From the IMG/VR virus record IMGVR_UViG_3300030117_005059, positions 1-63,714 of that record: a DNA stretch of 63,714 bases. One strand, given 5' to 3'. Shown here one piece after another: positions 14,223 through 29,730 of the stretch; the stretch's first letter is position 1, and every line of letters begins with the position of its first letter. The position numbers and the translations under genes were made by a program. The notes beneath the pieces were generated by a model, which had not been told where the DNA came from, ran no database searches, and worked only from the letters and a program-made list of their open reading frames with translations. Origin of the DNA: a virus. Its lineage: Duplodnaviria > Caudoviricetes.

Positions 14223-14624
14223 TCACTTTCTTTTGTTCATTTTGTCTAAGATATTACCCCAGTTAGACATTCCTGGGATGCTCTCGATTCCAACTCCCGC
14301 ACTTGATGGGTCAACACCAATTGGACTGTTACCGCCAGGCAGTGGCTTTGTCCCTTCAAATAAAGCGGGGTTATCAAATTTTCTTTTTGCATCTTCGTAG
14401 CCGCTTTTCCCGATTGAGCCGAGAACTTTTTTACGACTATCCTTCATTTGTTTTCTAAAGCCTTGCTCATGGCTAGGAACAGGGGCTTGTCGGCTTTCAA
14501 CAACCAGACCCGCATTCAAACCTTCAGCAACCTCTGTTACAATTGTCTTTAGAAGACCCTCTTCAAGAATAATCTCTCTCACACACTCTTTGACTAGAGC
14601 CTTAAGTTGTGAACGTTTCATCAA
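14223..14624 (-). CDS. Hypothetical protein with KRSQLKALVKE leader (putative prohead/internal protein)
   Basis: 133-aa ORF overlapping the protease stop. Confidence 0.7.
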   Translation of the reverse strand: MMKRSQLKALVKECVREIILEEGLLKTIVTEVAEGLNAGLVVESRQAPVPSHEQGFRKQMKDSRKKVLGSIGKSGYEDAKRKFDNPALFEGTKPLPGGNSPIGVDPSSAGVGIESIPGMSNWGNILDKMNKRK

Positions 14625-15214
14625 TCCTCCAAGATTTCGTTTAACGCACGATTAATACGGTCAGCCTTTGTTAAGTTAGACTTAACTTGACTCTCCGCAA
14701 CCAAATATGCACCGGTAGTGCTTGGCTCTGAAACTAAATCAAAGCACAAGAGTTGAAAATCATCTTCAACCATAGTTGTTTTACCTTGTTGTCGGGTAGA
14801 GCCGAGCCCTCTGGAAGATATTCCCAACTGGACACCGCCTTTTACAAGTTGTTTAGCAACTTTTCCTGCCGGTGTGTCAAGAATCTTCAATTTGCCCATA
14901 ACATCATCACCATTCCACCAAACTTCGGTTACAAGGTGACTAGCATTCTTCAATTCCACAACTGAACTGTCTGGGTGATCGAGTTCTCCAATAGCTCGAC
15001 CTTCACGAACGAGCTTTTCGTAGTTTTTCATCTCTCGCTCAAGGATTGGCTTAGGATAAATTCTACCATTGCCGTTTTTCTTGCCTGCGGCTTGGATTTT
15101 GCCTGCTAGAACCAGATGGATACCGCTTTTATTACCCTCTCGCTCTTCTTCAGTCAACAATGAATCGCTATAATCCAAATTCATAAACTCTTGAAGCACA
15201 TATTTCTTTGTCAT
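14621..15214 (-). CDS. Prohead core protease (gp21-like)
   Basis: NGNGRIYP, GELDHP, SH, LGISSRGLGS, FDLVSEPST. Confidence 0.95.
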   Translation of the reverse strand: MTKKYVLQEFMNLDYSDSLLTEEEREGNKSGIHLVLAGKIQAAGKKNGNGRIYPKPILEREMKNYEKLVREGRAIGELDHPDSSVVELKNASHLVTEVWWNGDDVMGKLKILDTPAGKVAKQLVKGGVQLGISSRGLGSTRQQGKTTMVEDDFQLLCFDLVSEPSTTGAYLVAESQVKSNLTKADRINRALNEILED

Positions 15215-16188: not shown

Positions 16189-17008
16189 CTTTCTTGTACT
16201 CATTAGCAAGTTTTTGTATTTTTAAAACTGTCTTTAGATCATCTTGAGAAAACTCTGACATGCTAAAGTTCTCAATAATTCTTAGAACACTCTTTGTGTT
16301 TTTAACCATCTGGTCGTCACTTTTTACATCTTCCATCACCAGTGAATTCTTTACCTCACTATGCAACCGGGCTAGTTCAGAATTTAAATAAACTCTAAAA
16401 TCAACACCACCATCCCTGATTGATAGAATGTGTCGATTCAATAATCCTTTTTGCTCAGGCAGTAAGTCTGAGTATTGAGAATTGTATTTTTTGGTGAAGC
16501 TCTTTATAACCAAATCATCAATTGGCTTAAGTTCAGACTCTTCTCTATCCTCATCCTTTTGAGTCAAATTTTCTAACACTGTTCTTTCCATCAACACCTT
16601 CTTCTTCACTGGTGTTTGGTCACTAAAAATTTGAGATATTGTAGCTAATGCTCTATAGTTTGGAACAAACGCAGAAAACACATCGTTACCGATTTCGTGG
16701 TTGATACGCCTAATCATTGCGCTTTGCTCTACAAAGAGTTGCTTTTGATTTATATTCCCATGTTCCACCTTGGTCTGGTAAACTAACTTCTCAGCAGTAT
16801 ACCCATCAAGGTTATCAGCCTCACACAAAGCCTTATAGCAATCAAGCTCTTTTCTTAGAGCCTTTGTCTTTGCAAACGATTCTTTTAGAATTGATCTAAT
16901 AGACGAAGCTCTTTTATAGTCTTTTGCCAGCACAGACTTAGTTAACTCACGAACCAGAGCTTCAAAAATAAAACCAGTGTTTCTTTTCTTATTGTGCTTG
17001 GTCTTCAT
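16178..17008 (-). CDS. Hypothetical helical protein downstream of portal (prohead-core-type)
   Basis: 276 aa, KHNKKRNTGFIFEAL N-terminus, overlaps the portal end. Confidence 0.7.
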   Translation of the reverse strand: MKTKHNKKRNTGFIFEALVRELTKSVLAKDYKRASSIRSILKESFAKTKALRKELDCYKALCEADNLDGYTAEKLVYQTKVEHGNINQKQLFVEQSAMIRRINHEIGNDVFSAFVPNYRALATISQIFSDQTPVKKKVLMERTVLENLTQKDEDREESELKPIDDLVIKSFTKKYNSQYSDLLPEQKGLLNRHILSIRDGGVDFRVYLNSELARLHSEVKNSLVMEDVKSDDQMVKNTKSVLRIIENFSMSEFSQDDLKTVLKIQKLANEYKKDGD

Positions 17009-18917
17009 TCTTAGCCTCCAACTGACTGATCAAATTCTTAATTTGATTCTTGGTCTCGAATAAAAGAGTTTCATCCTTTTCGTACATCTCAGTCACCCCA
17101 ACTGCTAACTTATTTATATCCTGTGCCCCTTTAAATAGGTTCCTAGTTGCGCTTGAGGCAGTTTGTTGTCCAGCTTGTGCAGCATAACTTCTACGCCTAG
17201 GTCCCATACCCTTTCTGCTGTCCATTGTCTCGGGAGTATAAAACTTCCCTTTAGCCCCTGGTGTGAGGTATGCCTGATCTCTCATACCGGGCGCTGCCAA
17301 TAGTGGACTTTCATCTCCTGCCGGCTCCTCGGCGGCGGCTTCCTCACCACCTCCTTCTTCACCTCCTAAACCTAAGTCCTCACCACCTAAGTCCTCTCCG
17401 CCAGCTTCTTCTCCACCAGCAGGTGCAGCAGCGGCGGCTGCTGCGGTAGCTGCCTCACCTGCCGCTGTGGCAGCGGATTCAATCACAGCGTCAAGCTTAG
17501 AGTCGTGATATCTTTCTTCAATGATTCTATCAATCTCTTGCTCATCAAGTTTGAAGATGTTTTTATATACCCATCGCTTTGAGAAGAACCCTTCTGTTGC
17601 GGCACCAGCGATGTCAAATCTAGTTCTCATGTGCTCCAACTCTTGAAGTTCAGCAATCTTAGATGGATTGTTTAGTGACAATTTGAAAGACAAAAGATCA
17701 TCACCTCTATACCCTAGTGTGTATAGGTGAACAACCGCCATCTTATGAAGCTCTGCGATAATAACTCTTTGCAGTCTTTGAATGGTTCTAGCAAATCGAA
17801 TATCTTTTTGCGCCAAAGTTGCTTTGTCTTCCATAGCATCTGACTGTGCCAAATAAGCCTTTGGAATCTTAAGTGCTGAAAACAACTTGTCCCTAAGATA
17901 CTGGACGTCTTCAATAGCACTGGTAAATTGTCCACCAGCTAAAGTTTCAACCCTTGATGAGTTGCCGGCTCTAACAGGAATATAATAATCCTCATCAATG
18001 CTCATCGCATTGTAACGAAGATCCACCCTACCAGTATCAGCATCAACGATTTGGTTTCGCTTCATTTGAGTTCGCACTTGCTCAATGTATTGCTCGACTT
18101 CTTGCGGCGGGATGTTGCCCACGTCAATGTAAAAAACACGACGCTCTGGGGAACGCACCACCCGGTAAGCCATCATGGCATCTTCAATTAGAGTAAGCTG
18201 TCTCCAGATTCTTCTTGCTGGCTCTAATACTGACGTTCCATACGGGGTATATAATTCATTTCCCAGGACCCTAAAGTGTGCAATCTGCCAGTTCTCGAAG
18301 GTAACTCCCGAAGGCGAGTTTTGTCCCCCGCTCCAAAAGTATTGAATGTAATTTGGGTTGGTCGGGTCTGTGCCCTCGACTCTTTCGCACTCTCTTAGCG
18401 GCAGCGGCACCACGTTTGTAATACCAAGTTCTTCATCAATGTCAAGATATAAAAAATAATCTCCGTATTTACAAGTTGACCGAGCCCAGCCAAATAAGTT
18501 AAAGTCAATGTTCAGCACACTATACAACAAAACGTTTATGATGTGCTTAATCTCTTGGTTTTGACAATCAACCCTAACGATTGGGGAGATCTCTGAAGAA
18601 GTTGTAATCTCATCGGCGTACACATCTAACGATGACGCAATCTCTGGCATATATTCCATTTGATCAAAGTCAGCATATCGATACTCACGATTCTGCTCAG
18701 ACAGTTGTTTGCTTTGCAGAGGTTCAAATATATTATAATATTCTTTTTTCTTGAACTCTTTGCCCGTGCTAGTAGTAAAGGTGTAGTTCTTGATACTAGT
18801 TGATTTTAGGCGCTTAACCTGTTGCTTATTGTAGTTGACAATAGGACCACTGAATAGTCTTGTCAGCCTCTTAAACAGGGTAGCTTGTTTGTTTCTTGGG
18901 TTACTGTTGTCTGCCAT
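16989..18917 (-). CDS. Portal vertex protein (T4 gp20-like)
   Basis: EDAMMAYRVVRSPERRVFYIDVGNIP, EDYYIPVR, LKIPK; acidic Gly-rich C-terminal tail. Confidence 0.97.
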   Translation of the reverse strand: MADNSNPRNKQATLFKRLTRLFSGPIVNYNKQQVKRLKSTSIKNYTFTTSTGKEFKKKEYYNIFEPLQSKQLSEQNREYRYADFDQMEYMPEIASSLDVYADEITTSSEISPIVRVDCQNQEIKHIINVLLYSVLNIDFNLFGWARSTCKYGDYFLYLDIDEELGITNVVPLPLRECERVEGTDPTNPNYIQYFWSGGQNSPSGVTFENWQIAHFRVLGNELYTPYGTSVLEPARRIWRQLTLIEDAMMAYRVVRSPERRVFYIDVGNIPPQEVEQYIEQVRTQMKRNQIVDADTGRVDLRYNAMSIDEDYYIPVRAGNSSRVETLAGGQFTSAIEDVQYLRDKLFSALKIPKAYLAQSDAMEDKATLAQKDIRFARTIQRLQRVIIAELHKMAVVHLYTLGYRGDDLLSFKLSLNNPSKIAELQELEHMRTRFDIAGAATEGFFSKRWVYKNIFKLDEQEIDRIIEERYHDSKLDAVIESAATAAGEAATAAAAAAAPAGGEEAGGEDLGGEDLGLGGEEGGGEEAAAEEPAGDESPLLAAPGMRDQAYLTPGAKGKFYTPETMDSRKGMGPRRRSYAAQAGQQTASSATRNLFKGAQDINKLAVGVTEMYEKDETLLFETKNQIKNLISQLEAKNEDQAQ

Positions 18918-18920
18918 TTC

Positions 18921-20480
18921 CTATCCCTTATAAATCCAAGGTAAGTAATTACCTCTAGGGCTGGGCTGTTTTCTCTTATCCGAATATCCTGCCATACCCT
19001 TAATTCTAGTATCTAGTTTGCTACTGTCAGATCTCCACGCTGTAAACATGGCTTTTCTTTGCTCTACGTCTCTTTGATTAACTGTCAATGCCGTATCCCT
19101 AATCCAACAAGCTATTGCCAAAGCAATAACCAAATCATCATTATAACCTCTCATACCTTGCGGTCGCCCATTGTGCCAAATGAAAGTCTTAATTTCATTA
19201 ACCGTTCGTAAAGAGTTCAATGTAAGTAGTTTATTTCTGACGAACTCTTCAAGTTTTGATATAACAAGAGGTCGAGTTTTCATAGACATTGTAAAACCTG
19301 CTACCCCACCTCTTGCTTCAGCCGTAGATCGATCAACAAATTCGTGCGTCGCTTTAAGACTGTAGTAGATGTTATCATAACCTATCTCTTCTATTTTGTT
19401 TAACACACCATAGTCGTGATTATTTTCAATAACCAGCAGTGCATTGTTGTACTCACTAGCCATGCTAACTAAAAGAGGAGCAAACATATCAGAGGTCACT
19501 TTACCTTGATATTCTGCAACTTGTTCTAAGGTGTCCAGTCTAATAATTTGTGCAACACTAAAGTCACTACCGTCACCTCGTGCAACGTCAGCACATAAAA
19601 GATATTCTGCCCCTTCCTCAACAGGTTTCCAGATCCAATAGTTTCTATCAAAACCGGTTCTGTGTTGTGGCTCAGAACAATTATCTAACAATCTTTTTAT
19701 ATCATCGCCCGATACAACTGTATCACCGGATGCGTTAAAGTTGCATTCTAACTCTTGAGCTATTTCTCGGGCGGACATGTTTCTTGTCTCTTTTTGAAAC
19801 CATTTTTCGTCTCTATCTGGATGCACTGACCAAGGTAACTTAATAGTAAAGAAATCGTTTTTACTCTCAATAGCCTCGTTGTAAGTTTTATGAAACCAGT
19901 TGCCAACCCCATTAGGTGTAGACAGTGCGATACACCGACCACCTGTTGACAGAGTGGGGTAAAGACCAGCCCACAATTCATCCATACCTTCAACAAAAGC
20001 TGCCTCATCCACAACCAAAAGAGACAGCGCCTCCGAACGACCAGCATCACCAGAGGTCGAGGAAGCCTTGACTTGCGACCCATTACTTAACTCAAACGAG
20101 GTTCTATTATTAATGCTGATGTCTGCAATCTTCAGCCAAGGCGGCAAGTGCTTATGAATTGATTTGATCTTCTTAACTAAGTTTGTAGCTGTGCTTAGTT
20201 TTGTTGCAACGACTAAAACGTTCTTTTCTCGCTGAAACAACATTAGCCAACAAACATAAGCGGCAACCGTTGTTGAGATACCTAGCTGCCTAGCTTTTAA
20301 GATGACACTAAATCTATGTTTTGTAAAATCATTTAGTGCCTGTTTCTGAAAATCATATAGATCAAAAGGTATCAAGCCCCTCATGGGCTCAGAAATTCTT
20401 GCGTAGGTATTAGTAAAGTAAACAGGGTCTCGTCCACAGCGGACGATCTCTTGCATTATCTCCTTTTTTGTAAGAGACAT
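18921..20480 (-). CDS. Terminase large subunit (gp17-like)
   Basis: KARQLGIST (Walker A), LLVVDEAAF (Walker B), STPNG, ADVARGDGSD, NDDLV nuclease motifs. Confidence 0.97.
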   Translation of the reverse strand: MSLTKKEIMQEIVRCGRDPVYFTNTYARISEPMRGLIPFDLYDFQKQALNDFTKHRFSVILKARQLGISTTVAAYVCWLMLFQREKNVLVVATKLSTATNLVKKIKSIHKHLPPWLKIADISINNRTSFELSNGSQVKASSTSGDAGRSEALSLLVVDEAAFVEGMDELWAGLYPTLSTGGRCIALSTPNGVGNWFHKTYNEAIESKNDFFTIKLPWSVHPDRDEKWFQKETRNMSAREIAQELECNFNASGDTVVSGDDIKRLLDNCSEPQHRTGFDRNYWIWKPVEEGAEYLLCADVARGDGSDFSVAQIIRLDTLEQVAEYQGKVTSDMFAPLLVSMASEYNNALLVIENNHDYGVLNKIEEIGYDNIYYSLKATHEFVDRSTAEARGGVAGFTMSMKTRPLVISKLEEFVRNKLLTLNSLRTVNEIKTFIWHNGRPQGMRGYNDDLVIALAIACWIRDTALTVNQRDVEQRKAMFTAWRSDSSKLDTRIKGMAGYSDKRKQPSPRGNYLPWIYKG

Positions 20481-21035
20481 TTACGCTTCTGGCGTATCAG
20501 GATTCTTCTTCGATGTGTCGTTTGATGGTCTCTTATCAGATGAAAGCTCCAAGAACTTCTTGAAATTGTCATCAAGCCTGTCTTTATCTGATCTTTGACC
20601 GATAGGATCGACTCCCTCTACGCCTCCAATCTTGTATGCTTTCTGTGCCTGAATCCAAGTTCTAACACGGGAAATACTTTGTGCATCAACTCTAGCCTCA
20701 TCGATAGGCGACAAAGTTACAGATCCGTTACCAAGTCGTCTATATTCTTTTTTAAGATACTTTAGAATATCTGCAAAGCGTGCTTCAACTTCATTAACAA
20801 GTTTGTTGGGTGGGTGCATATCTTTCATACTCATCTCTGAGTGATAAGAAACAACCATTTGATCTGCGGCAAATCTAATTTTGAATCCATCAAGTGCTGC
20901 CTTATCATAGATCCCTCTGCCACTTTCTCGCTTTAGACCTAGTTCCAACGGATCACCGTTCTCATCTAGAGCACCATCATATGCGTTTGCTGCTGCTTGA
21001 GCCAGACCTTTTACAACATCATTAATATTAGCCAT
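20481..21035 (-). CDS. Hypothetical protein immediately upstream of terminase
   Basis: 184-aa ORF abutting the terL start. Confidence 0.7.
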   Translation of the reverse strand: MANINDVVKGLAQAAANAYDGALDENGDPLELGLKRESGRGIYDKAALDGFKIRFAADQMVVSYHSEMSMKDMHPPNKLVNEVEARFADILKYLKKEYRRLGNGSVTLSPIDEARVDAQSISRVRTWIQAQKAYKIGGVEGVDPIGQRSDKDRLDDNFKKFLELSSDKRPSNDTSKKNPDTPEA

Positions 21036-21450
21036 GCTGTTTCTTTCTCCTCTTCAATGCGATTTGTACTCGCTCTTCGTTAGGTCGCCATCCCTCTTGC
21101 CATCTTTCTTCACGGTCGTGAACAAATTCATAATAGCAATCTTGACAACACTTAAACCTATTCATATATAGGTCGTCTTTCATAGAAAATGAATATGTTT
21201 TACATACAGGGCAAGTCCTATCGTATTTTCTTTTGCTAGCTTTTTTTGAAATGAGAATACCATCAACATCTACCTTGTCCTGATTGGACTCACTTTTAAT
21301 AAGAGTTGCGCTCTTTAGTTGCTCTAAGTATTCTTTTTCTTTTTGCTCATCCCACTCAGACCTAAAATCTTGTACTGTTTGTTTGCCGTACTTTTTAGCG
21401 ATCGCCTTTTCTACTGATGCGACATATTCCCAGTCAAGTTTTTTGCTCAC
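21028..21450 (-). CDS. Hypothetical zinc-finger protein
   Basis: CPVC...CCQDC motif, GWRP. Confidence 0.7.
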   Translation of the reverse strand: MSKKLDWEYVASVEKAIAKKYGKQTVQDFRSEWDEQKEKEYLEQLKSATLIKSESNQDKVDVDGILISKKASKRKYDRTCPVCKTYSFSMKDDLYMNRFKCCQDCYYEFVHDREERWQEGWRPNEERVQIALKRRKKQHG

Positions 21451-21827
21451 TGTGGATACACCGCATGTACGATACCAATAGAGACACCAACCCCCACTGT
21501 TAATCCAGTAAGCAAACCAACAACACCTCTATTCCTGTCAAACCAAGAGTTGTTTTTTCTGAGTTGTTGCTCTAACTTAGTTATGGATAATTTGTAGGTC
21601 TCTTGCATCTGGGTGCATACTTTTTTATCCACTTGACACTCAGCCATCTTAGCGTTAGTATCAATCTTTTTCTGGAGCATAGTGCGAAAGTCTTCCTCGC
21701 TCATTAATATGCCAACATAACTACTACCATCTTGCTCAACAACCGCTGGGCGAGGCTTGAACTTTACAACCTCTGCCGCAGCGGCGTTGAACGAAAGTAG
21801 TAATGCGAGTGCAACCGTTATCTTCAT
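21447..21827 (-). CDS. Exported coiled-coil protein with C-terminal TM (spanin-like topology)
   Basis: Signal peptide MKITVALALLLSFNAAAA, central coiled coil with two Cys, Gly-rich hydrophobic C-terminus. Confidence 0.6.
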   Translation of the reverse strand: MKITVALALLLSFNAAAAEVVKFKPRPAVVEQDGSSYVGILMSEEDFRTMLQKKIDTNAKMAECQVDKKVCTQMQETYKLSITKLEQQLRKNNSWFDRNRGVVGLLTGLTVGVGVSIGIVHAVYPQ

Positions 21828-21828
21828 T

Positions 21829-22971
21829 TTACTTTAGAAACTTTTTCAAGCCCTCAATGCGTTTGCCGGGTCGCTTGAGACCGCTAACCAAAGTGTAAGT
21901 TACAAGCTTGTCTCGCTTGGCATCCTCATAAATACCACGATGCACGATAGCTCCACCGGTCAAAGCTGCCAAAGTATCAAATCCAAACTCGATGTTATCC
22001 ATTAGACCCACAGTCTCCTCAAAGATAACTTCGCCACCCACCACAATACAAGCGGCACCTGATGCAGTGGTTAGATCAAAACCCTCCGCAAGAAGAGTCT
22101 TCTCTAGGTTCTTTTTAAGAGCAGTCGAAACAGCAGTTTCATTCTCTGGTTCTTTAACTGTGGTAACACCCATAATCATACAGCCTGGTTGTTTCATAAT
22201 GCTATCGTAATCTGTAGCGTCGAAGGTCGTATACTCAGAGTCCTTGTTTGCCAAGACGTTGAAGACATGAAATAAACCAGCGACTGTGTTGTTAATGGTC
22301 TTCCAAAATTTCTTAACCGTAAGTTTAGGGTAAAGCTTTTTAATCTTTTCGTTGTCCACCATAATGAGTGGAGCAATCTGTCCCTTTTCTGCGAGCCCGC
22401 AAAGTTGAGTGATTCGATTGTGGGCATTTTTTGCAACGGTTGGTGATGCCGACTCGCCAGCCGTTGGTAGTGATGCGACTACACCAACTCGCTCATCTAC
22501 GTTCTCAACACCAATGTAAGTAAAGTACTTCTTTGCCACCTTGATGAGAGTGTTAACCGTTCCGCCACCAGAACCACCAGAAACACCAAGACAGATCAAG
22601 ATACGATCAACGTTGTTCCCGAAGATCTCACGGAACTTATTGAATACTTCTTGCTCCTTACGTTCGATAGCAGCTTCGGCTTTAGCTTGGTCTTTGCCAG
22701 CACCCTGCTCGCCATGCTCATCAACTAAGAACTTTTGGTTTTCTGGTAAGTCAAGCCCATTCAGGTCTGACTTCGCTGTGTTTACGGCAACAGTCTTGGT
22801 GTAACCCATATCATAAAATGCTTTTGCCATACGTCCGCCGCCTTGACCAGCGCCAACAATTGCGTATACCAAAGCACCACCTGATTTGTCCTCAACAGAC
22901 TCTTCCTCTTCATTTAGTTCGGGATCATAATCCTCGATATCTAATTCAGGAATATCTAAATCAATAGTCAT
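21829..22971 (-). CDS. Tubulin/FtsZ-family GTPase (PhuZ/TubZ/CetZ-like)
   Basis: GAGQGGGRMA, AVNTA..DL, GAGKD, GVSGGSGGG (tubulin signature-like), VDNE, and T7-loop-like FDATD. Confidence 0.92.
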   Translation of the reverse strand: MTIDLDIPELDIEDYDPELNEEEESVEDKSGGALVYAIVGAGQGGGRMAKAFYDMGYTKTVAVNTAKSDLNGLDLPENQKFLVDEHGEQGAGKDQAKAEAAIERKEQEVFNKFREIFGNNVDRILICLGVSGGSGGGTVNTLIKVAKKYFTYIGVENVDERVGVVASLPTAGESASPTVAKNAHNRITQLCGLAEKGQIAPLIMVDNEKIKKLYPKLTVKKFWKTINNTVAGLFHVFNVLANKDSEYTTFDATDYDSIMKQPGCMIMGVTTVKEPENETAVSTALKKNLEKTLLAEGFDLTTASGAACIVVGGEVIFEETVGLMDNIEFGFDTLAALTGGAIVHRGIYEDAKRDKLVTYTLVSGLKRPGKRIEGLKKFLK

Positions 22972-23198
22972 TTGGTTCTCCTTTTTTTTGGGGCTGCTTT
23001 CGCCCTTTTTGTTTTTGTTTTTTTTTGCGTAGGCTTAATTGCTTCGGCTTTTGCCACTGCTTCTTGCGCCCTCATTTGATTTTGTTTTATCAGTTCAATA
23101 GCTCTAGCTTTTTTGGCTTCTTCGATCTCAGCCGCTAATTGCTTTTGTTGCTCCAATGCAATCGCAACTCTTTGCTTTCTTCTTTTCGGTGCTGGCAT
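22968..23198 (-). CDS. Small basic coiled-coil protein
   Basis: 76 aa, Lys/Arg-rich termini around a helical core; GGAG SD. Confidence 0.65.
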   Translation of the reverse strand: MPAPKRRKQRVAIALEQQKQLAAEIEEAKKARAIELIKQNQMRAQEAVAKAEAIKPTQKKTKTKRAKAAPKKRRTK

Positions 23199-23210
23199 AA
23201 CCTATCTCCA

Positions 23211-23525
23211 TCAAATATCTAACTCTTCGTGAAGTCTAATAAGTGCGTTTAGTCTGTCTTCTCGATTGTCTATCTTCTTTGTATCTTGCAGACGACTCTC
23301 GAATACTTTCTTAACCGCACCTATCTTATCCTTCTCTAAGTCAGCCCTTAACTTACTTTCTTTAGCATGGATCTTTACTTGTGTTAAGACATCATCAACA
23401 ACAGTTTCATTTTTTTCTGCTGGCTTAACCAAGCGATACATATAATAGGCAACTGCAACAAGCAGCAAAGCTGCCGCTACAGTTGACCAAAAATATTGCT
23501 TTACCTTAAGTTTAAGCCAGTTCAT
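23211..23525 (-). CDS. Single-TM coiled-coil protein (i-spanin/FtsL-like topology)
   Basis: N-terminal TM FWSTVAAALLLVAVAYYMY followed by a coiled coil. Confidence 0.6.
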   Translation of the reverse strand: MNWLKLKVKQYFWSTVAAALLLVAVAYYMYRLVKPAEKNETVVDDVLTQVKIHAKESKLRADLEKDKIGAVKKVFESRLQDTKKIDNREDRLNALIRLHEELDI

Positions 23526-23707
23526 TTACCGTGCTTCCACTTGGATGCAATATCTGCTGCGCCTTGAAGCCCAATGTAAGCTAGCGAAACAGCAACCCAC
23601 TGATCACCAGTAAGCATACCAAGTGGTAAAAGCACAGTAGAGGTGCCCCACACAATTAACTTTCTTGACGCCCATTTGCCGAGCAGTTTGTCAATTTTAC
23701 CTGCCAT
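23522..23707 (-). CDS. Small two-TM protein, holin-like
   Basis: 61 aa, SRKLIVW...two hydrophobic helices...YIGLQGAAD, basic C-terminus. Confidence 0.6.
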   Translation of the reverse strand: MAGKIDKLLGKWASRKLIVWGTSTVLLPLGMLTGDQWVAVSLAYIGLQGAADIASKWKHGK

Positions 23708-24606
23708 TATTTTTCCTCAAGTGCAAACGGTGCTTTGGGTTCATTCCAATCAATCTCGCCTTGGGCTAAAGCCTTGGCGGCAATCTTGTCTGCGTTAGGA
23801 ACTCTTTTTGGATCAATCACAGGCATATCGACTCTATCAGGAGCGCCGGCAGGCAACTCGAAAGATACTTGCCCAAGATTATCTACGAACTTCTTCACGG
23901 CGGCGTCAACTGCTGCGTCGCCGTCCTCACCCGTAAATTTCTTCAAAGCCGCCATCACATCAGCAGGCTTCATGAACTCGTTGCCCTCGCTAGCCAGTTT
24001 AGTTAATTCTTGTCTGATTGGAGCTTCCTTAAATTGGTCGAAACCACCAGTGCCCTCTTTACCTTGCATAATACCCAGCTTACCAACGGTGATTGAGTTA
24101 AGCAATCTAATTAAGTCAGTGCCTGGGAAATCCACTGCGTAGCCACCAACTTCCTTAGAGGGATCAACCATACTCGTTGCAACCCATCGATGGTGACCAT
24201 CCATAATATGATTATCACTACTAATAAACGCACCCAAGTTACCACCAGTCGGCATTTTTCCAGCGATCATAGAAATAGCCATACCCATAGCCTTTCCAAT
24301 ATTCATGCTTGACTGAGATGGTTTTAACTGAGACACTGGGAATGTAGCGTTTGGCTTGACATCAATAACGTCATCAGTCTCACTACCATCCTGCCTACCC
24401 TTGGTCACATTTTGTTTGGCATCGCTCGCATCAGCGGCAACGTCCGAAAGCTTAAGAGGGAACTCTTCTGGGTCCACCTTCTTCTCGTTGAGCAATACTT
24501 TTCTAACTGCCCTACTGACAGACTCTCTTAAAATTTGTTTTCTTTTGGATTTTAAAACTTGTTCTTTAATAATTCTAGCGAGTTTTTGCTTGTTAATCTT
24601 TTTCAT
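23707..24606 (-). CDS. ParB/Sulfiredoxin-like domain protein
   Basis: VSQLKPSQ and ISSDNHIMDGHHRW motifs; N-terminal KLARIIKEQV leader. Confidence 0.75.
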   Translation of the reverse strand: MKKINKQKLARIIKEQVLKSKRKQILRESVSRAVRKVLLNEKKVDPEEFPLKLSDVAADASDAKQNVTKGRQDGSETDDVIDVKPNATFPVSQLKPSQSSMNIGKAMGMAISMIAGKMPTGGNLGAFISSDNHIMDGHHRWVATSMVDPSKEVGGYAVDFPGTDLIRLLNSITVGKLGIMQGKEGTGGFDQFKEAPIRQELTKLASEGNEFMKPADVMAALKKFTGEDGDAAVDAAVKKFVDNLGQVSFELPAGAPDRVDMPVIDPKRVPNADKIAAKALAQGEIDWNEPKAPFALEEK

Positions 24607-24618
24607 TTTTTCTCCCAA

Positions 24619-25080
24619 TTAGGTTAGCTTCAGCATTGCATTCATAAATTTATCAACGGACTGGTCACCTATTTGCTTGCTCTTTAGACTAAGCAACATC
24701 TCTTCAACGCCATCAAAACCACGCTTTGAACCTTTTTCTTTCAAGGCGTTAAATTCAGTCATAGCTTTAGCAATAAGGTTTTCATCGTAAGGGGCTGTCC
24801 CACCTTTAGCAAAAGCCTTTGCCATGTTTGAAAATAATTGTGGAATGGCTTTTGCACCCATGCCTGACATTGCTCCACCAATTTCATTAAAAGCTTTCTG
24901 AAGCTGTCCGGTGTGTTTATCGGGATTATCTAAAGCAACAACATTGCCCTTCTTTTTCTTTTTTCCGAAGAGTCCACCTAAGAATTCGTCAACACGACCT
25001 TCTTTGATAACTTTCCTACCTACCTCTTGGTAAATCGCTTCTCTAATAACTTTGTGTAAATCAGACTTTTTAAATTTCAT
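24619..25080 (-). CDS. Hypothetical protein with KSDLHKVIRE leader
   Basis: True start most likely the ATG at 25080 behind GGGGAGG; promoter motif upstream. Confidence 0.7.
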   Translation of the reverse strand: MKFKKSDLHKVIREAIYQEVGRKVIKEGRVDEFLGGLFGKKKKKGNVVALDNPDKHTGQLQKAFNEIGGAMSGMGAKAIPQLFSNMAKAFAKGGTAPYDENLIAKAMTEFNALKEKGSKRGFDGVEEMLLSLKSKQIGDQSVDKFMNAMLKLT

Positions 25081-25105
25081 TATCAATAACCTCCCCAGGC
25101 TAAAA

Positions 25106-25113
25106 TAAATAGT
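25106..25113 (-). promoter_or_regulatory. Putative late promoter motif ACTATTTA heading the ParB/tubulin/terminase operon
   Basis: Motif 25 nt upstream of the 25080 start. Confidence 0.6.
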
Positions 25114-25117
25114 ATGT

Positions 25118-25324
25118 TTATATCGTTTTCGCCCGCCTATGAATTTGAACGTCGCCTGCTCTAATTCTGTATTCCTGCCCATCGCAAATAATAGTTGCTA
25201 TTTTTTCCCAAGTATGGTATTGTTTAAGTAAACCAACACGCCACTTGGAATAGACAGTTGGGCGATGTAACCCAGCGCCGTGATCTAATATTTCTCTGAA
25301 TCTAACGAGGTCGCCGGCTTTCAT
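25118..25324 (-). CDS. Small KOW/SH3-like hypothetical protein
   Basis: MKAGDLVRF start, 68 aa, beta pattern. Confidence 0.6.
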   Translation of the reverse strand: MKAGDLVRFREILDHGAGLHRPTVYSKWRVGLLKQYHTWEKIATIICDGQEYRIRAGDVQIHRRAKTI

Positions 25325-25769
25325 ATTTCCGTACCCTTTCTAGGAAAATCTGACGATTACCTTCTGTGTTCATAGAACTAATCTCAGTTGTAGGACAATC
25401 AAGTGACTGGTGCATTGGTGCTTTTATTGTTCTACCTAAATCTTTTACGCCCACAGACAAACCACAAGTGGGTGATCTAGCTATGCCAATAAAACCAACA
25501 ACTTCATCGTAACGCTGCTCTATTTCTTCGCACTTGTCTTTAAGTTGCCTGTAAACCTCTCGCTTACCAGCAAAGGCTTTTATGTCACCATCAACTGAAC
25601 GTAATCTTATAGTTGAACGTGGAGTGCCAAACAATTCGTGCTCTGGACACACAGGCACAAGCTCAAAGCCGTTAGCTTCTGCCCACTCATATATTTCTTC
25701 GTTCCGGCGATTGCTGCCGTTCCACCTGACGTTTTCGCCATACACACAAGCACTAATAAGTATTTTCAA
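25302..25769 (-). CDS. DUF523 family (thiouracil desulfidase TudS-like)
   Basis: ILISAC.YG..VRWNG, VPVCPE, G.PR, SPTCG: the three conserved Cys motifs. Confidence 0.85.
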   Translation of the reverse strand: MKILISACVYGENVRWNGSNRRNEEIYEWAEANGFELVPVCPEHELFGTPRSTIRLRSVDGDIKAFAGKREVYRQLKDKCEEIEQRYDEVVGFIGIARSPTCGLSVGVKDLGRTIKAPMHQSLDCPTTEISSMNTEGNRQIFLERVRKYESRRPR

Positions 25770-26220
25770 TTTTCTTATGCTCTGCTTTCATAGCTAGGTA
25801 ATCCTCGTTCTCTCGTGCCTCTTTCCAGCAACTATAAAAAACCCTAGCACTATCAGCTTTCTCGCAAGTCAGAGCGTCTGGCTCTTGTGGTAAAACACTG
25901 CCATCAGTAGCGTATTTCTTTCCATCTCTATGGTTAGCATATCTACGAGCACGAGTGAAACCCATGTGTAGAAACTTCTTAGCCATATCTGCACCAACAA
26001 AATCCCCTTGCTCCACGAAGTCGTAAAACATCTTTAAGATTATCTGACTAGAAACTTCTGCCTCTGGAACAGTCTTGAATCGCCAGTGAGCACAGATCTC
26101 TGACTTATAGGGCTCGCAGATTAGGACACCCTGTTGTCCTCTACCAATATGGTACAGGTGCGGATTCTGACGATAGTCAACTTCAGGGTTCCACTTCTTA
26201 AAATAATCTTTACTAATCAT
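25753..26220 (-). CDS. DUF4385 family protein
   Basis: Y.IGRG.QGVL..EPYKSEI...WRFKT, DFVGADMA.KFL.MGFTRARRYANH. Confidence 0.85.
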   Translation of the reverse strand: MISKDYFKKWNPEVDYRQNPHLYHIGRGQQGVLICEPYKSEICAHWRFKTVPEAEVSSQIILKMFYDFVEQGDFVGADMAKKFLHMGFTRARRYANHRDGKKYATDGSVLPQEPDALTCEKADSARVFYSCWKEARENEDYLAMKAEHKKIENTY

Positions 26221-26594
26221 TCTATCTCTTTCAAATATTTCTGCGCTCTTGCTAAAGCCCTAATACTATCCTTGAATAACCCAAGTCCACGATTACATTG
26301 ATGACACAAAAATCCTCTGAACTTATTAGTGACGTGGCAATGGTCTAATACCCAAACACCAGCCCAACCTCCTGTGCCTTCTAACTCCTTTTCATCTCTC
26401 TGGCATATAGGGCAAATGTGATCTGGCGGGGCTGTGCCATGTTTTTCTTTTAGCAACCTACGCTGGCGAGACAGTTCATTGTTACACTTTTTGCACTCTG
26501 GTCGGTATATGTTCTTTCCGCCGTGGGCACGACTAAAACAAGAAAGATCTAAAGATTGTCCACATTTACTACACTTCTTCTTATTGGTTGACAT
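26217..26594 (-). CDS. Endonuclease VII-family (His-Me) nuclease
   Basis: CSKC/CKKC zinc finger, then CPIC...VLDHCH...FRGFLC..CNRGLG. Confidence 0.88.
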   Translation of the reverse strand: MSTNKKKCSKCGQSLDLSCFSRAHGGKNIYRPECKKCNNELSRQRRLLKEKHGTAPPDHICPICQRDEKELEGTGGWAGVWVLDHCHVTNKFRGFLCHQCNRGLGLFKDSIRALARAQKYLKEIE

Positions 26595-29500
26595 AAGCAT
26601 ACCCCGATTGACGCTCAATGTCAATAGTCATATCGGCAATATCTTTGAGACTATCCAAGTGAGTAATCAAAAGCACAGTCTTGTAGTAGCCCTTAATCAT
26701 TTCCATCACTCGCATAAAGCCTTCAAGGTTTTCGGCGTCCAACGCTGTGCCTGGCTCATCCATAATCATGATGTCTGATTTTGGTAGGGTTGACACATTG
26801 GTTAGGGCGATACGGATGGCAATTGCTGCTAGCGTTTTCTCTGCTCCAGAAGCCATCTCTAAAGGTCGTGCTTCGTACTTTGGATGCTTGATGAAGATGT
26901 CTAGCTTATTCTTTTCTGCCTCAAAGAAAATATCAAAATCGGTGACGTTGGCAAGCACCGTACTGACCTCTTCATTGATAAGAGGTAGCATCCGCTTCAC
27001 AACATCATAACTGATACCATTAGGATGAGTACACCGCATAAACAAATCATAGGCAGCGTACTCTGTCCGCAGGTCTTCCAATTCTTGCTGCTTCTCTTTG
27101 ATGTTCGCAATTTGAGTTTCAATACCACCGTGTGATTTTACTAGGTCAAGCACCTTGGTTTCACAGATGGCAATATCGCTTTCCATCTTGATGGCTTTTT
27201 CCTTGAGGTCATCCTGTTCTTTGATAAGACCTTCTCGATTCTCAATTGCCTCCTTGTTCGTTTCATACAAATCAATCTTGGTTCTGATGTTTGTCATTTC
27301 GCTGGTGAGAAGATGGATTTTATTTTTTATCTTTGCAAAAGATAGGTCAAGGTTGGTTGCTTCAGTACAAAGATCAGCATGTTCTTTGTCTCTGCTGATG
27401 TACAGTTTCCGCTCTGCTTCCAGAGTTTTTACGTCCATATCTTCCAGCTTAGCTGTCAATTGATTGTGGCGGCGCTTTAAATTAGTAAGCGTCTTCTTTA
27501 CCTCTTGAAGAAGCTCCTTAGCTTCATAAGCATCTTTGATATATTTGCGGAGACCGCAGTCAGGACCGCAAGGTACTTCGTCAAGAGCATCGAGCTTCTT
27601 TTTGTAAACTGCTTGATTATTTTCTTCAAGCTTAATCTGGTTCTCAATGTCTCTAAGGTCTTTTTGTAAAACCTCACATCGATTAATTTGACTTGCAAGT
27701 GTATCAACGTCTGTGGCATCTAAAAGCTTTTTTAGGACTTTGGCTTGCGCCAAAACATCTTTCTTTTGCTTTTTGGCTTGCGTTGATTTGGTATTGAGGT
27801 CTGCTGATTCTTGCTCTGCTGTCGCAAGTCTTGCTGTCTCTTTTCTAATATTAATAAGTTCAACAGGGGCAGATGCGAAAAGTCCATCAATCTCTCTCAC
27901 TCGTTCGGAAATGGTTTCTAACTGTGTAGTTAGTTTAGCACATTTCCTTTCTTGTGTTTCCCTTGCTTTTTCATTATCGGTCAGTTGTCCGAGGAGTTGC
28001 GTAATATCTTCATCAAAATTATTATCTTCCAACTTTTTCAGGAGGGCACGGGTCTCAATACTATCGTTCTTGGATAGTTTGAACTTCTTCTCAAACTGGT
28101 CAAGGTCCAAAAACTTGGCAAGGATTTCCTTGCGCTTGGTTGAGCCCTCGTTGATGAAAGTCATTGCACCCATCTGGCTGGACATGCTGGTCAACAGGAA
28201 GTCGTCAATGCTACCAAAGATTTTACGGATAGCTTTGTCGGTGCCGTTACGGTCCAGCGAGTTGAGGCTGGTTTCCTCATCAGTGGCTGGATCAATCACA
28301 ACAAATTCCACATCAGTCTTAGCTTCCTCTGTTTCCTCCCCATGGAGTTTTCGAGTATATTTCTCTGACTTCCTCTCAATAATATAGTTCTTGCCAGCGA
28401 TGTCAATTTCAACTCGACCATATCCAGACGGTTTGTTCTGATTAATAATATTAAGATTCTTACGACTGTTCTTGCTGATTGAGTTATACACTGTGTAGAG
28501 CATACTGTCAACGACAGAACTCTTACCTGAATAGTTTTTACCGAAGATGCCAACGACGCCATTAAGTTTATCAAAGTTGACAGCATTACCCTCTCCATAG
28601 TTGAAGAGGTTGTCCCATTCCATCTTCTTCAGAGACCATTCTACGTTTCGCAGTCCTGCCTCGTCGCCATTAACATGTGCGTCATAACGTGAGTTAAGCT
28701 GAAATACTTTTTCTAGTGTCTTATCATCGGGTTCGTATTCTTTTAGATACTCTCGAATAAGGCGCTCTTGAACTGCTTGATCCCGCAGGTTCTCTGTGTT
28801 GCCAAGGTCGTCAACGTTTACGCTATCCCGTTTGAGACCAGCCTTGTTGACGAACGATAGGCTCTCGGGCTTGAAGCGGGTTTTGACAATATCCATCACA
28901 CGGCGGATTTTGTCTAGCGAGACTTTGTGGTGTGTCACCACACGCAGTCGGGCACCCTCTGGGATATCCAGCTTGCGTGGGATGTTCCCCTTCGCTGTCA
29001 TCTCAATTGTCATAAAGGGTTTAATATTTTCAACGAGACAATGCTTAACTTCATAGTCAGTCTTGCTCTTGATGTCCCAGATTAAAAAGCCCTTGTCGTT
29101 TGTCTCACCATGGTTTTGCTGGATAGTAGAACCACAATAACGAATGGTGCCACTCTCGTTGAGGACTTGGTTAGTCTTGTGGATATCACCCAACATAGCG
29201 TAGTCAAACTTATCAAACACTGAGATGTCATGATCGCCGTGGTCCATCACCCAACCGAGGTCTGTTTGACTATTATTAATTGCTCCGTGATAAAGAGCGA
29301 TATTGATTGCATTAGGATCAGACGGATCTTCCCAATTAGTCTCATCAAAGATTGACAAAACGTTTAGGGTCAAGTCGTCTTCCAACTGAACCTCACCTGA
29401 GTACTTGTGTAGGATTAGGCTTGGGTGATTGAGTGCTTCCACAATCGGAGTGATAGCATCTTGGCGAGCAGCGTTCCGTAGGTTGCCGTCATGGTTCCCA

Positions 29501-29730
29501 AGAATAATATGGGTCTCGGCGATGTCAGCCAAGTTCTTTAGGAAGTCTGTAGCTAACTCAAAGTACTCTGGCGAGAGTTGTGTTTTTGTGTGAGCCAAGT
29601 CGCCAGTATGGACGATGTAGTCTACATTTTCTTTTCTCAGGGTTTCATATATATGCTCAAATGCCTTACGGTACTCGTAATGGTATTTCAGATTTTTGAT
29701 ATGGGTGTCCCCAAAGTGTGCTATTCTCAT
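26581..29730 (-). CDS. Fused Mre11/SbcD nuclease-Rad50/SbcC ATPase (gp47+gp46-like)
   Basis: N-terminal GDTH, HTGD, GNHD, GDIH phosphoesterase motifs; GKNYSGKSS Walker A, long coiled coil, ASGAE signature, IMIMDE Walker B, ITH. Confidence 0.93.
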   Translation of the reverse strand: MRIAHFGDTHIKNLKYHYEYRKAFEHIYETLRKENVDYIVHTGDLAHTKTQLSPEYFELATDFLKNLADIAETHIILGNHDGNLRNAARQDAITPIVEALNHPSLILHKYSGEVQLEDDLTLNVLSIFDETNWEDPSDPNAINIALYHGAINNSQTDLGWVMDHGDHDISVFDKFDYAMLGDIHKTNQVLNESGTIRYCGSTIQQNHGETNDKGFLIWDIKSKTDYEVKHCLVENIKPFMTIEMTAKGNIPRKLDIPEGARLRVVTHHKVSLDKIRRVMDIVKTRFKPESLSFVNKAGLKRDSVNVDDLGNTENLRDQAVQERLIREYLKEYEPDDKTLEKVFQLNSRYDAHVNGDEAGLRNVEWSLKKMEWDNLFNYGEGNAVNFDKLNGVVGIFGKNYSGKSSVVDSMLYTVYNSISKNSRKNLNIINQNKPSGYGRVEIDIAGKNYIIERKSEKYTRKLHGEETEEAKTDVEFVVIDPATDEETSLNSLDRNGTDKAIRKIFGSIDDFLLTSMSSQMGAMTFINEGSTKRKEILAKFLDLDQFEKKFKLSKNDSIETRALLKKLEDNNFDEDITQLLGQLTDNEKARETQERKCAKLTTQLETISERVREIDGLFASAPVELINIRKETARLATAEQESADLNTKSTQAKKQKKDVLAQAKVLKKLLDATDVDTLASQINRCEVLQKDLRDIENQIKLEENNQAVYKKKLDALDEVPCGPDCGLRKYIKDAYEAKELLQEVKKTLTNLKRRHNQLTAKLEDMDVKTLEAERKLYISRDKEHADLCTEATNLDLSFAKIKNKIHLLTSEMTNIRTKIDLYETNKEAIENREGLIKEQDDLKEKAIKMESDIAICETKVLDLVKSHGGIETQIANIKEKQQELEDLRTEYAAYDLFMRCTHPNGISYDVVKRMLPLINEEVSTVLANVTDFDIFFEAEKNKLDIFIKHPKYEARPLEMASGAEKTLAAIAIRIALTNVSTLPKSDIMIMDEPGTALDAENLEGFMRVMEMIKGYYKTVLLITHLDSLKDIADMTIDIERQSGYAYVNQ

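Follow-up and report, generated by a model that had tools for sequence, protein, structure and literature searches.

Phage tubulins are known from two settings. PhuZ belongs to the phage nucleus and TubZ to the partition of plasmid prophages. Here we analyse a tubulin/FtsZ-type gene in the putative late unit of an uncultivated virus, the IMG/VR record IMGVR_UViG_3300030117_005059. The whole record, 63,714 nucleotides (nt) long and about 35% complete, is referred to as the window. Its tubulin belongs to a third phage family, found in marine T4-type phages of ordinary size in which both a nucleus shell and a partition cassette are missing; the family is large (886 clusters) and uncharacterised. 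In its own clade the tubulin is more conserved than the terminase, portal and capsid proteins, which suggests an unstudied cytoskeletal step of infection in common ocean phages.

In earlier accounts, jumbo-phage tubulins are linked to the nucleus or to pseudolysogeny (PMC7824862), a marine jumbo-phage tubulin is tied to the phiKZ-like group (PMC9123017), phages with both chimallin and PhuZ are described (PMC12625630), and an FtsZ/CetZ-like gene of phage G is mentioned (PMC12484599). In the literature searched, supplements excluded, a tubulin is not described for marine phages that are of T4 type or form no nucleus. An initial annotation of this DNA had suggested that the system may be undescribed, and as regards the tubulin this agrees with it.

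Identity of the window tubulin

The tubulin sequence of 380 residues matches two Pfam models, Tubulin (PF00091; 8e-9, 36.4 bits with a cut-off of 33, and 36.6 bits in a six-frame search) and TubZ-like_C (PF22453; 2e-6, 28.2 bits with a cut-off of 26). A profile built from 63 family members finds B. cereus TubZ (4ei7, deposited as RepX) as its best match in the PDB at 1e-43. Further matches are M. jannaschii FtsZ (1e-30), CetZ (3e-28), the TubZ-named chain 4xcq (6e-27) and the FtsZ/tubulin-related protein 3m89 (8e-23), and no PhuZ-named chain is present among the 60 matches shown. The profile scores are 97.7 bits for phage c-st TubZ, 83.6 for pBtoxis TubZ, 73.1 for E. coli FtsZ and 17.1 for phiKZ PhuZ. 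The AlphaFold 2 (AF2) model has a predicted local distance difference test score (pLDDT) of 95.1 and a predicted template modelling score (pTM) of 0.92. Its best solved match in Foldseek is B. thuringiensis TubZ (2xka; TM-score 0.76, E 2.5e-22). Among viral models the best match is an uncultured Caudovirales 'FtsZ' with a TM-score of 0.84, and PhuZ-type entries reach 0.50–0.57. The initial annotation had named a real tubulin-family GTPase, and the Pfam matches, the confident model and the 2xka fold match confirm it.

The residues expected for a GTPase of this superfamily are in place. Gly42, Gly45 and Gly135 are invariant in all 63 family sequences, and the 18 closest sequences show no variation at the signature loop residues Gly132, Gly133, Gly135 and Gly137 or at Asp251 and Asp254 of the T7 loop. 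Asp251 and Asp254 align to an Asp and a Glu of 4ei7. The signature loop of the window protein is GGSGGG; its Ser stands in place of the Thr of most family members (GGGTGxG type). The open reading frame (ORF) very likely encodes a working TubZ-like GTPase, and this protein probably polymerises. Residues 1–35 form an acidic N-terminal extension. Its motif IPxLxLEDFExP is kept across 18 sequences down to 40% identity, and the strict peptide pattern is found in 22 of 106 tubulin representatives, with 1.0 expected. At the other end the last helix of the AF2 model spans residues 369–379, so that there is no long C-terminal tail.

The family comprises 886 clusters at 50% identity with E<=1e-3, or 205 with E<=1e-30, among the 1.84 billion representatives searched. 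Source names, where given, are 'cell division GTPase FtsZ' or hypothetical protein. The window tubulin has no PHROG match, no tblastn match at E<=1e-5 among 50,697 deposited phage records and no close relative among 185,579 prokaryote genomes; two distant representatives (P0006 and P0013) have no match in IMG/VR. In all four long homologues tested (P0004, P0055, P0063 and P0135; 807–961 residues) the GTPase domain is broken by a LAGLIDADG homing-endonuclease intein. Three of these breaks are near the signature loop, and the query match resumes at residues 131–134. Three other homologues (P0005, P0008 and P0146) are called as fusions, with a C-terminal AAA+ lid domain or an N-terminal glycosyltransferase, and may be read-through gene calls.

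The phage itself is of T4 type. A Gp23 major capsid protein (MCP), an S77 prohead protease and a tail sheath gene are identified in the window, and the T4-type head and tail named in the initial annotation are thereby found. The large terminase TerL is 41–44% identical to those of the nearest deposited phages, Flavobacterium phage immuto and Microcystis phage Mel-JY01, in neither of which is the tubulin found. The chimallin models phrog_4795 and PF25677 match none of the four related records G000–G003, two of which are 98% and 100% complete, and the PHROG model finds phiKZ chimallin at 1.8e-232 as positive control. This agrees with the initial annotation, which had set the phage apart from the nucleus-forming ones. 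The carriers of the tubulin are uncultivated marine T4-type myoviruses of about 170–190 kb without a phage-nucleus shell.

PhuZ resembles the window tubulin in being a phage-encoded tubulin with an acidic terminal peptide; in PhuZ this tail is C-terminal and mediates filament contacts. A role in positioning or transport during lytic infection is our favoured analogy. However, phiKZ PhuZ matches PF22334 and phrog_4733 and the window tubulin matches neither. The profile score of 17 bits, the fold similarity (TM-score of about 0.5), the missing chimallin in G000–G003 and the T4-type head, tail and prohead protease also separate the two. With FtsZ and CetZ the window tubulin shares the superfamily fold (query-normalised TM-score 0.61–0.73) and profile matches at 1e-30 to 1e-28. 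In contrast to these proteins, it is phage-borne, has no match to the FtsZ C-terminal domain and carries no conserved C-terminal anchor peptide.

The TubZ proteins (4ei7 of B. cereus, 2xka of pBtoxis and that of phage c-st) have the same combination of GTPase and TubZ-like C-terminal domain, with the acidic T7-loop residues aligned. The plasmid TubZ proteins are the closest solved relatives by both profile and fold, which favours a TubZRC-like type III partition system as an alternative. In such a system the tubulin would segregate plasmid-like or pseudolysogenic phage episomes and a small basic neighbour would serve as DNA adaptor. A small K/R-rich ORF is indeed located directly before the tubulin in the window and in 5 of 71 related loci, or directly after it in the relative G004. 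Several differences argue against partition. There is no conserved adaptor, and in 66 of the 71 loci the upstream gene encodes a membrane protein. Neither a TubR-type adaptor nor tubC-like iterons are found at the window tubulin, and positions 20400–26700 hold no repeat array, only two-copy families of 12–29 nt and, as the one tandem repeat, a 2.7-copy, 9-nt coding repeat. The tubulin ends after its last helix and has the conserved acidic N-terminal extension in place of a long C-terminal tail, the part that matters for TubZ according to PMC5322520. TubZ is encoded on a plasmid or plasmid prophage, whereas the window tubulin lies in a T4-type genome behind late-type motifs, is only about 19–22% identical to TubZ and has no close relative in the prokaryote genomes. 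We consider partition improbable. Given the low PhuZ score and the missing TubR-type gene, the tubulin is neither a PhuZ nor part of a TubZRC cassette, as the initial annotation had held.

Conservation and placement of the tubulin in relatives

The tubulin is 85–99% identical in 80 related loci, in most of which TerL is about 70–74% and the portal about 60–66% identical. In the comparison with the complete relative G003 it ranks first of the 48 window ORFs with 91.2%; the prohead protease reaches 83.8%, TerL 73.0%, the portal 63.7% and the MCP 58.9%. The genomic context of the tubulin was compared in relatives down to about 66% identity.

The genes considered here are all encoded by the minus strand of the window. 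Behind one copy of the motif ACTATTTA they follow each other in the order g1, ParB/Srx-like gene, tm61, tmcc104, basic76, tubulin, spcc126, zn140, hyp184, TerL and portal, and the genes overlap or are separated by gaps of at most 13 nt. This is the tightly packed run reported in the initial annotation, with every element present on the strand and at the place given there. That annotation went further and suggested that the whole operon may encode one membrane-anchored cytoskeletal machine, with the ParB-like and basic proteins as candidate DNA adaptors and the transmembrane coiled-coil proteins as candidate anchors. Besides the tight packing in one unit, two observations would fit such a machine. 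Most of the 80 loci in the clade of the window keep the order tm61, tmcc104, tubulin, spcc126, with zn140, hyp184, TerL and portal following. In addition, tm61 is highly conserved, and its cytoplasmic ends are basic where the N-terminal tail of the tubulin is acidic. The kept order, however, says little, because this clade shares overall synteny anyway.

More distant relatives separate the tubulin from these genes. In G004 (66% complete, tubulin 67.7% identical) the tubulin is located at 17.0–18.2 kb and tm61 at 93.8 kb. There tm61 is followed by a 58-residue membrane protein, a protein with an N-terminal transmembrane helix and coiled coil, leader-bearing proteins and a protein with signal peptide, coiled coil and C-terminal transmembrane helix. 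The block ends with zn140, hyp184, TerL and portal at 98.5–103 kb, about 76–80 kb away from the tubulin. Thus the membrane and packaging block exists without the tubulin. Downstream of the G004 tubulin we find a small basic protein, a ClpP-like protein of 208 residues and a cytidylyltransferase-like protein of 165 residues, the latter two named by eye. In G005 the tubulin is placed between a preceding Hsp20-like gene and glycosyltransferase-like genes, all named from reading the sequences.

In 13 loci of the clades with 66–68% tubulin identity, hidden Markov models (HMMs) of five neighbours find no match within 8 kb of the tubulin. The tubulin is the first gene of a separate unit in most of these loci, and in the 68% clade the upstream genes are on the other strand. 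In locus L085 of the 68% clade the tubulin is followed, with a 4-nt start/stop overlap, by an unrelated protein of 101 residues with a transmembrane helix and a coiled coil (c29); some loci have a K/D/E-rich protein at this place instead. A PAP2-like protein comes next, and TerL is found within 8 kb downstream of the tubulin in 11 of the 13 loci. The PAP2-type phosphatase motifs were read by eye in a protein of 222–223 residues near the tubulin (L085:5628-6299, and cluster c23 in L082–L094).

Co-occurrence of the neighbours with the tubulin had been set beforehand as the test of a coupled system, and in G004 and the 13 loci they do not stay beside it. Moreover, ParB-like genes are present in 19 and g1 in one of the 80 loci, both with a cargo-type leader, and 5 of 71 loci have an ORF in the slot of the basic gene. 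For tmcc104 and spcc126 a periplasmic location of the soluble parts is predicted. A single membrane-anchored machine is therefore hard to maintain, and we regard it as very improbable. The tubulin is likely independent of its operon neighbours. It is a solo gene that took several genome positions. The late unit in the window's clade is a composite, and its other genes belong to three separable modules: a leader island, an envelope or periplasm set (tm61, tmcc104 and spcc126) and a packaging set (zn140, hyp184, TerL and portal).

Late-type motifs and possible roles of the tubulin

The motif ACTATTTA occurs ten times in the window, with 2.77 copies expected, and none of 100 shuffles reaches ten. 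Nine of the ten copies are on the coding strand, and seven of these nine sit 20–60 nt ahead of a start codon. Behind them lie, among others, the genes for the tail sheath and for a head-tail adaptor-like protein, and the gene just ahead of the gp23-type MCP. The copy that opens the tubulin run precedes the g1 start codon (ATG at 25080) by 25 nt, and this codon has a ribosome-binding site, GGGGAGG. Of the 51 related loci with enough upstream sequence, 28 have an exact copy at most 3.5 kb ahead of the tubulin, and in these it directly precedes tm61 (13 loci) or a leader-bearing gene. From its sequence and placement we infer that ACTATTTA is a late promoter, which seems a reasonable reading. Sigma-70-like sites are at chance level in the region (18 found, 18.3 expected), and terminator-like sites are not above chance (11 found, 7.7 expected).

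The 68% clade has other motifs. In L089 of the 68% clade, a copy of TATAAATA, which we take to be the T4 late-promoter consensus, ends 14 nt ahead of the tubulin start codon (locus region 5400–5443). In the window the same sequence is at chance level (2 copies, 2.8 expected). In L085 of the same clade TATATAATA is found just ahead of the tubulin, where the window's clade uses ACTATTTA instead.

On these grounds we propose a role as follows. The tubulin would be made late, together with the head and packaging proteins. Its GTP-dependent filaments would give order to the late cytoplasm; for example, they would place or transport proheads or replicated DNA so that packaging can occur. The contacts would be made by the tubulin itself, for example through the conserved acidic N-terminal peptide, and not by an operon-encoded adaptor. 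A solo, late-expressed TubZ-like filament former, with the other genes of the unit in separate modules, is the best explanation as a whole, and we give it about an even chance. An assembly or packaging role is favoured by the late-type promoter motifs, the frequent nearness of TerL and the precedent of PhuZ; that the filament organises late assembly or packaging is a tentative proposal, with clearly less than an even chance. The full combination, a third functional class of solo late TubZ-like filament that has no adaptor or centromere and organises assembly or packaging through its N-terminal peptide, is possible but rather unlikely.

Host take-over has to be weighed as another explanation. 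Here the phage tubulin would interfere with or replace the division or shape machinery of the host, for example as a division block or in envelope remodelling before lysis. The tubulin is an FtsZ-superfamily protein under unusually strong constraint, and a conserved host target would then account for this constraint. In two clades it stands tightly packed with envelope genes, and the PAP2-like phosphatase, named from its motifs, adjoins it in the 68% clade. However, identity to the structurally aligned FtsZ chains is only about 17–23%, so that co-polymerisation is unlikely. Furthermore, the tubulin is preceded by late-type promoter motifs rather than placed early, and in G004 the envelope genes stand apart from it. 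Take-over seems to us quite unlikely.

Several points weigh against the solo late filament and its role in packaging. The extreme conservation of the tubulin might just as well result from contact with a host partner that is itself conserved. It is also less marked at larger distance, since the tubulin identity of 67.7% in G004 is only slightly above that of TerL (61.1%) and the portal (64.0%). The putative late timing of the tubulin is read from promoter-like motifs. Neither in G004 nor in G005 are head or packaging genes found close to the tubulin, so that a link to packaging is not universal. Because a small protein with a transmembrane helix and a coiled coil is packed against the tubulin in two clades (tmcc104, and c29 in L085), a link to the membrane is possible. 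Finally, the phylogeny proposed at the outset was made with four references. They stand on long branches of 3.3–4.6, and the tree gives no placement of the family relative to TubZ, PhuZ or FtsZ.

The neighbouring modules

The features of the late unit and the prohead protease are collected in Table 1.

Table 1. Positions of the tubulin, its neighbours and the prohead protease in the window.
Feature	Position	Strand	Basis or remark
ACTATTTA motif	25106..25113	-	Putative late promoter of the gene run
g1, leader-bearing, 153 residues, starts MKFKK	24619..25080	-	Putative capsid-targeted cargo
ParB/Srx-like protein, 303 residues	23707..24618	-	Same N-terminal leader; putative capsid-targeted cargo
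tm61, small hairpin membrane protein, basic cytoplasmic ends	23522..23707	-	Envelope module; holin-like architecture
tmcc104, N-terminal transmembrane helix and coiled coil	23211..23525	-	Conserved C-terminus
basic76, small K/R-rich helical protein, 76 residues	22968..23198	-	4-nt overlap with tubulin start; accessory gene
TubZ-like tubulin/FtsZ GTPase, 380 residues	21829..22971	-	Pfam, PDB profile, AF2 model, Foldseek
spcc126	21447..21827	-	Signal peptide, periplasmic coiled coil with two Cys, C-terminal transmembrane helix; envelope module
zn140, Zn-ribbon protein	21028..21450	-	Conserved CPVC...CCQDC cysteines; packaging block
hyp184	20481..21035	-	Abuts TerL without spacer
TerL, large terminase, T4 type	18921..20480	-	PF03237 9e-13, phrog_2 8e-51
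Portal protein	16989..18917	-	phrog_213 1.7e-74
Prohead protease, gp21-type	14621-15214		PF03420 Peptidase_S77 at 1.1e-27

The internal proteins of T4 carry a capsid targeting leader with a consensus of its own and are cleaved by an (L/I)xE rule. A comparable arrangement is observed at the start of the late unit. A hypervariable island, at 23707–25080 in the window and between the s68 and tm61 genes in L003–L071, holds unrelated proteins that have a common N-terminal leader of the form MK[IL][TS]Kxx[LI]xx[IV][IV]KEE. This pattern is found in 57 of 1052 distinct ORFs of the 80 loci and is concentrated in cluster c13 (28 of 31), ParB-like proteins (11 of 17) and single-member clusters. Two of the 48 window ORFs have it, g1 and the ParB/Srx-like protein. 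Like the T4 proteins IPI, IPII and IPIII, these two are diverse, fast-changing proteins with only the leader in common, in a phage with a gp21-type protease. They differ from the T4 proteins in the leader sequence itself, and one putative cargo has a ParB/Srx-like core. The T-even internal proteins fit the pattern of shared leader and variable locus seen here, according to PMC3012670. By analogy, the island proteins including g1 and the ParB/Srx-like protein are most likely capsid-targeted cargo that is ejected, and the island indicates that a fast-evolving cargo locus defined by its leader also exists in phages other than the T-even ones.

We assign g1 a length of 153 residues (24619–25080) instead of the 187 residues of the maximal ORF, because the ATG at 25080 follows ACTATTTA and the GGGGAGG site. 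Its N-terminus MKFKKSDLHKVIRE fits the shared leader, as expected from the initial annotation, which had described the first gene as leader-bearing. No Pfam or PHROG match is found for g1, and the single related locus that carries it is L071.

The true start of the ParB/Srx-like protein is likely Met5 (MKKINK); P0271, an identical member of its cluster, has 299 residues. Its DGHHRW motif is invariant in 33 aligned homologues. No Pfam match and no PF02195 match at E<=0.1 are found, the 120 homologues listed have no precomputed Pfam match, and a PDB sequence search gives no match. The AF2 model has a pLDDT of 90.8. All top ten Foldseek entries are ParB, Noc or Atu1540, yet with E values of 0.04–0.25, and sulfiredoxin and serine kinase stand lower; the top three of VIA are serine kinase, sulfiredoxin and Atu1540 with Z of 5.1–5.2. 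The model thus weakly suggests a ParB/Srx fold. With its cargo-type leader and its presence in 19 of the 80 loci, the protein is more likely ejected capsid cargo than the candidate DNA adaptor of the initial annotation. In G004:C1:94558-96631 (part of L122 and L117), three proteins encoded one after the other differ otherwise but have a second leader type in common, ..ENWR[RK]F[IL]NE.., and their block also holds one protein with the first type.

In the envelope set, tm61 has a degree of conservation that is unusual among small membrane proteins, with 36 of 61 columns invariant in 30 sequences. Both of its hydrophobic helices are below the Kyte-Doolittle cut-off used. Its G004 homologue (C1:93822-93995; 61% identity, E 9e-26) is the one unlinked to the tubulin. 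The transmembrane segment of tmcc104 spans residues 11–29 and is preceded by a K/R-rich flank, and its C-terminal motif RLxALIRLHxELD is invariant. Because the N-terminal flank is strongly basic, the coiled coil probably faces the periplasm by the positive-inside rule. tmcc104 is the gene upstream of the tubulin in the 66 loci mentioned above and ends 11–13 nt before the tubulin start; no homologue is found in G004–G008. The spcc126 protein has hydrophobic segments at residues 3–21 and 102–120 and two cysteines, Cys64 and Cys71, and a protein of this architecture is present in the tubulin-free block of G004. With their soluble parts predicted to be periplasmic, tmcc104 and spcc126 cannot reach a cytoplasmic filament except through short tails, and the proposal of transmembrane coiled-coil anchors is not supported, given this and the G004 block. 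The labels holin and spanin were considered for tm61, tmcc104 and spcc126; no Pfam or PHROG family model matched, and they are analogies at the level of architecture only.

The basic76 protein contains 24 Lys and Arg in its 76 residues and has no Pfam or PHROG match. Its cluster has members only in the window, L001, L002 and L071. Among the five ORFs that fill its slot, those of L030 and L043 are unrelated in sequence. Such a rarely filled slot with unrelated forms argues against a function as DNA adaptor.

In the packaging set, zn140 matches only viral hypothetical clusters in the Atlas. Its homologue in G004 (5.5e-44) adjoins hyp184 and TerL, far from the tubulin. hyp184 has no Pfam, PHROG or Atlas match; its G004 homologue (1.1e-51) again stands directly before TerL, and by position it is possibly the small terminase subunit.

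Three further regions of the window were noted. A 1049-residue ORF at 26581–29730 joins an Mre11/SbcD-type phosphoesterase domain to a Rad50/SMC-type ATPase, and this fusion is the second most conserved window ORF in the comparison with G003 (87.0%). Of a 3427-residue ORF at 46411–56694, only 44% of the length aligns to G003, with 39% identity. Positions 25302–26220, immediately upstream of the late unit, hold a 2-thiouracil desulfurase-family gene (PF04463) and a DUF4385 gene.

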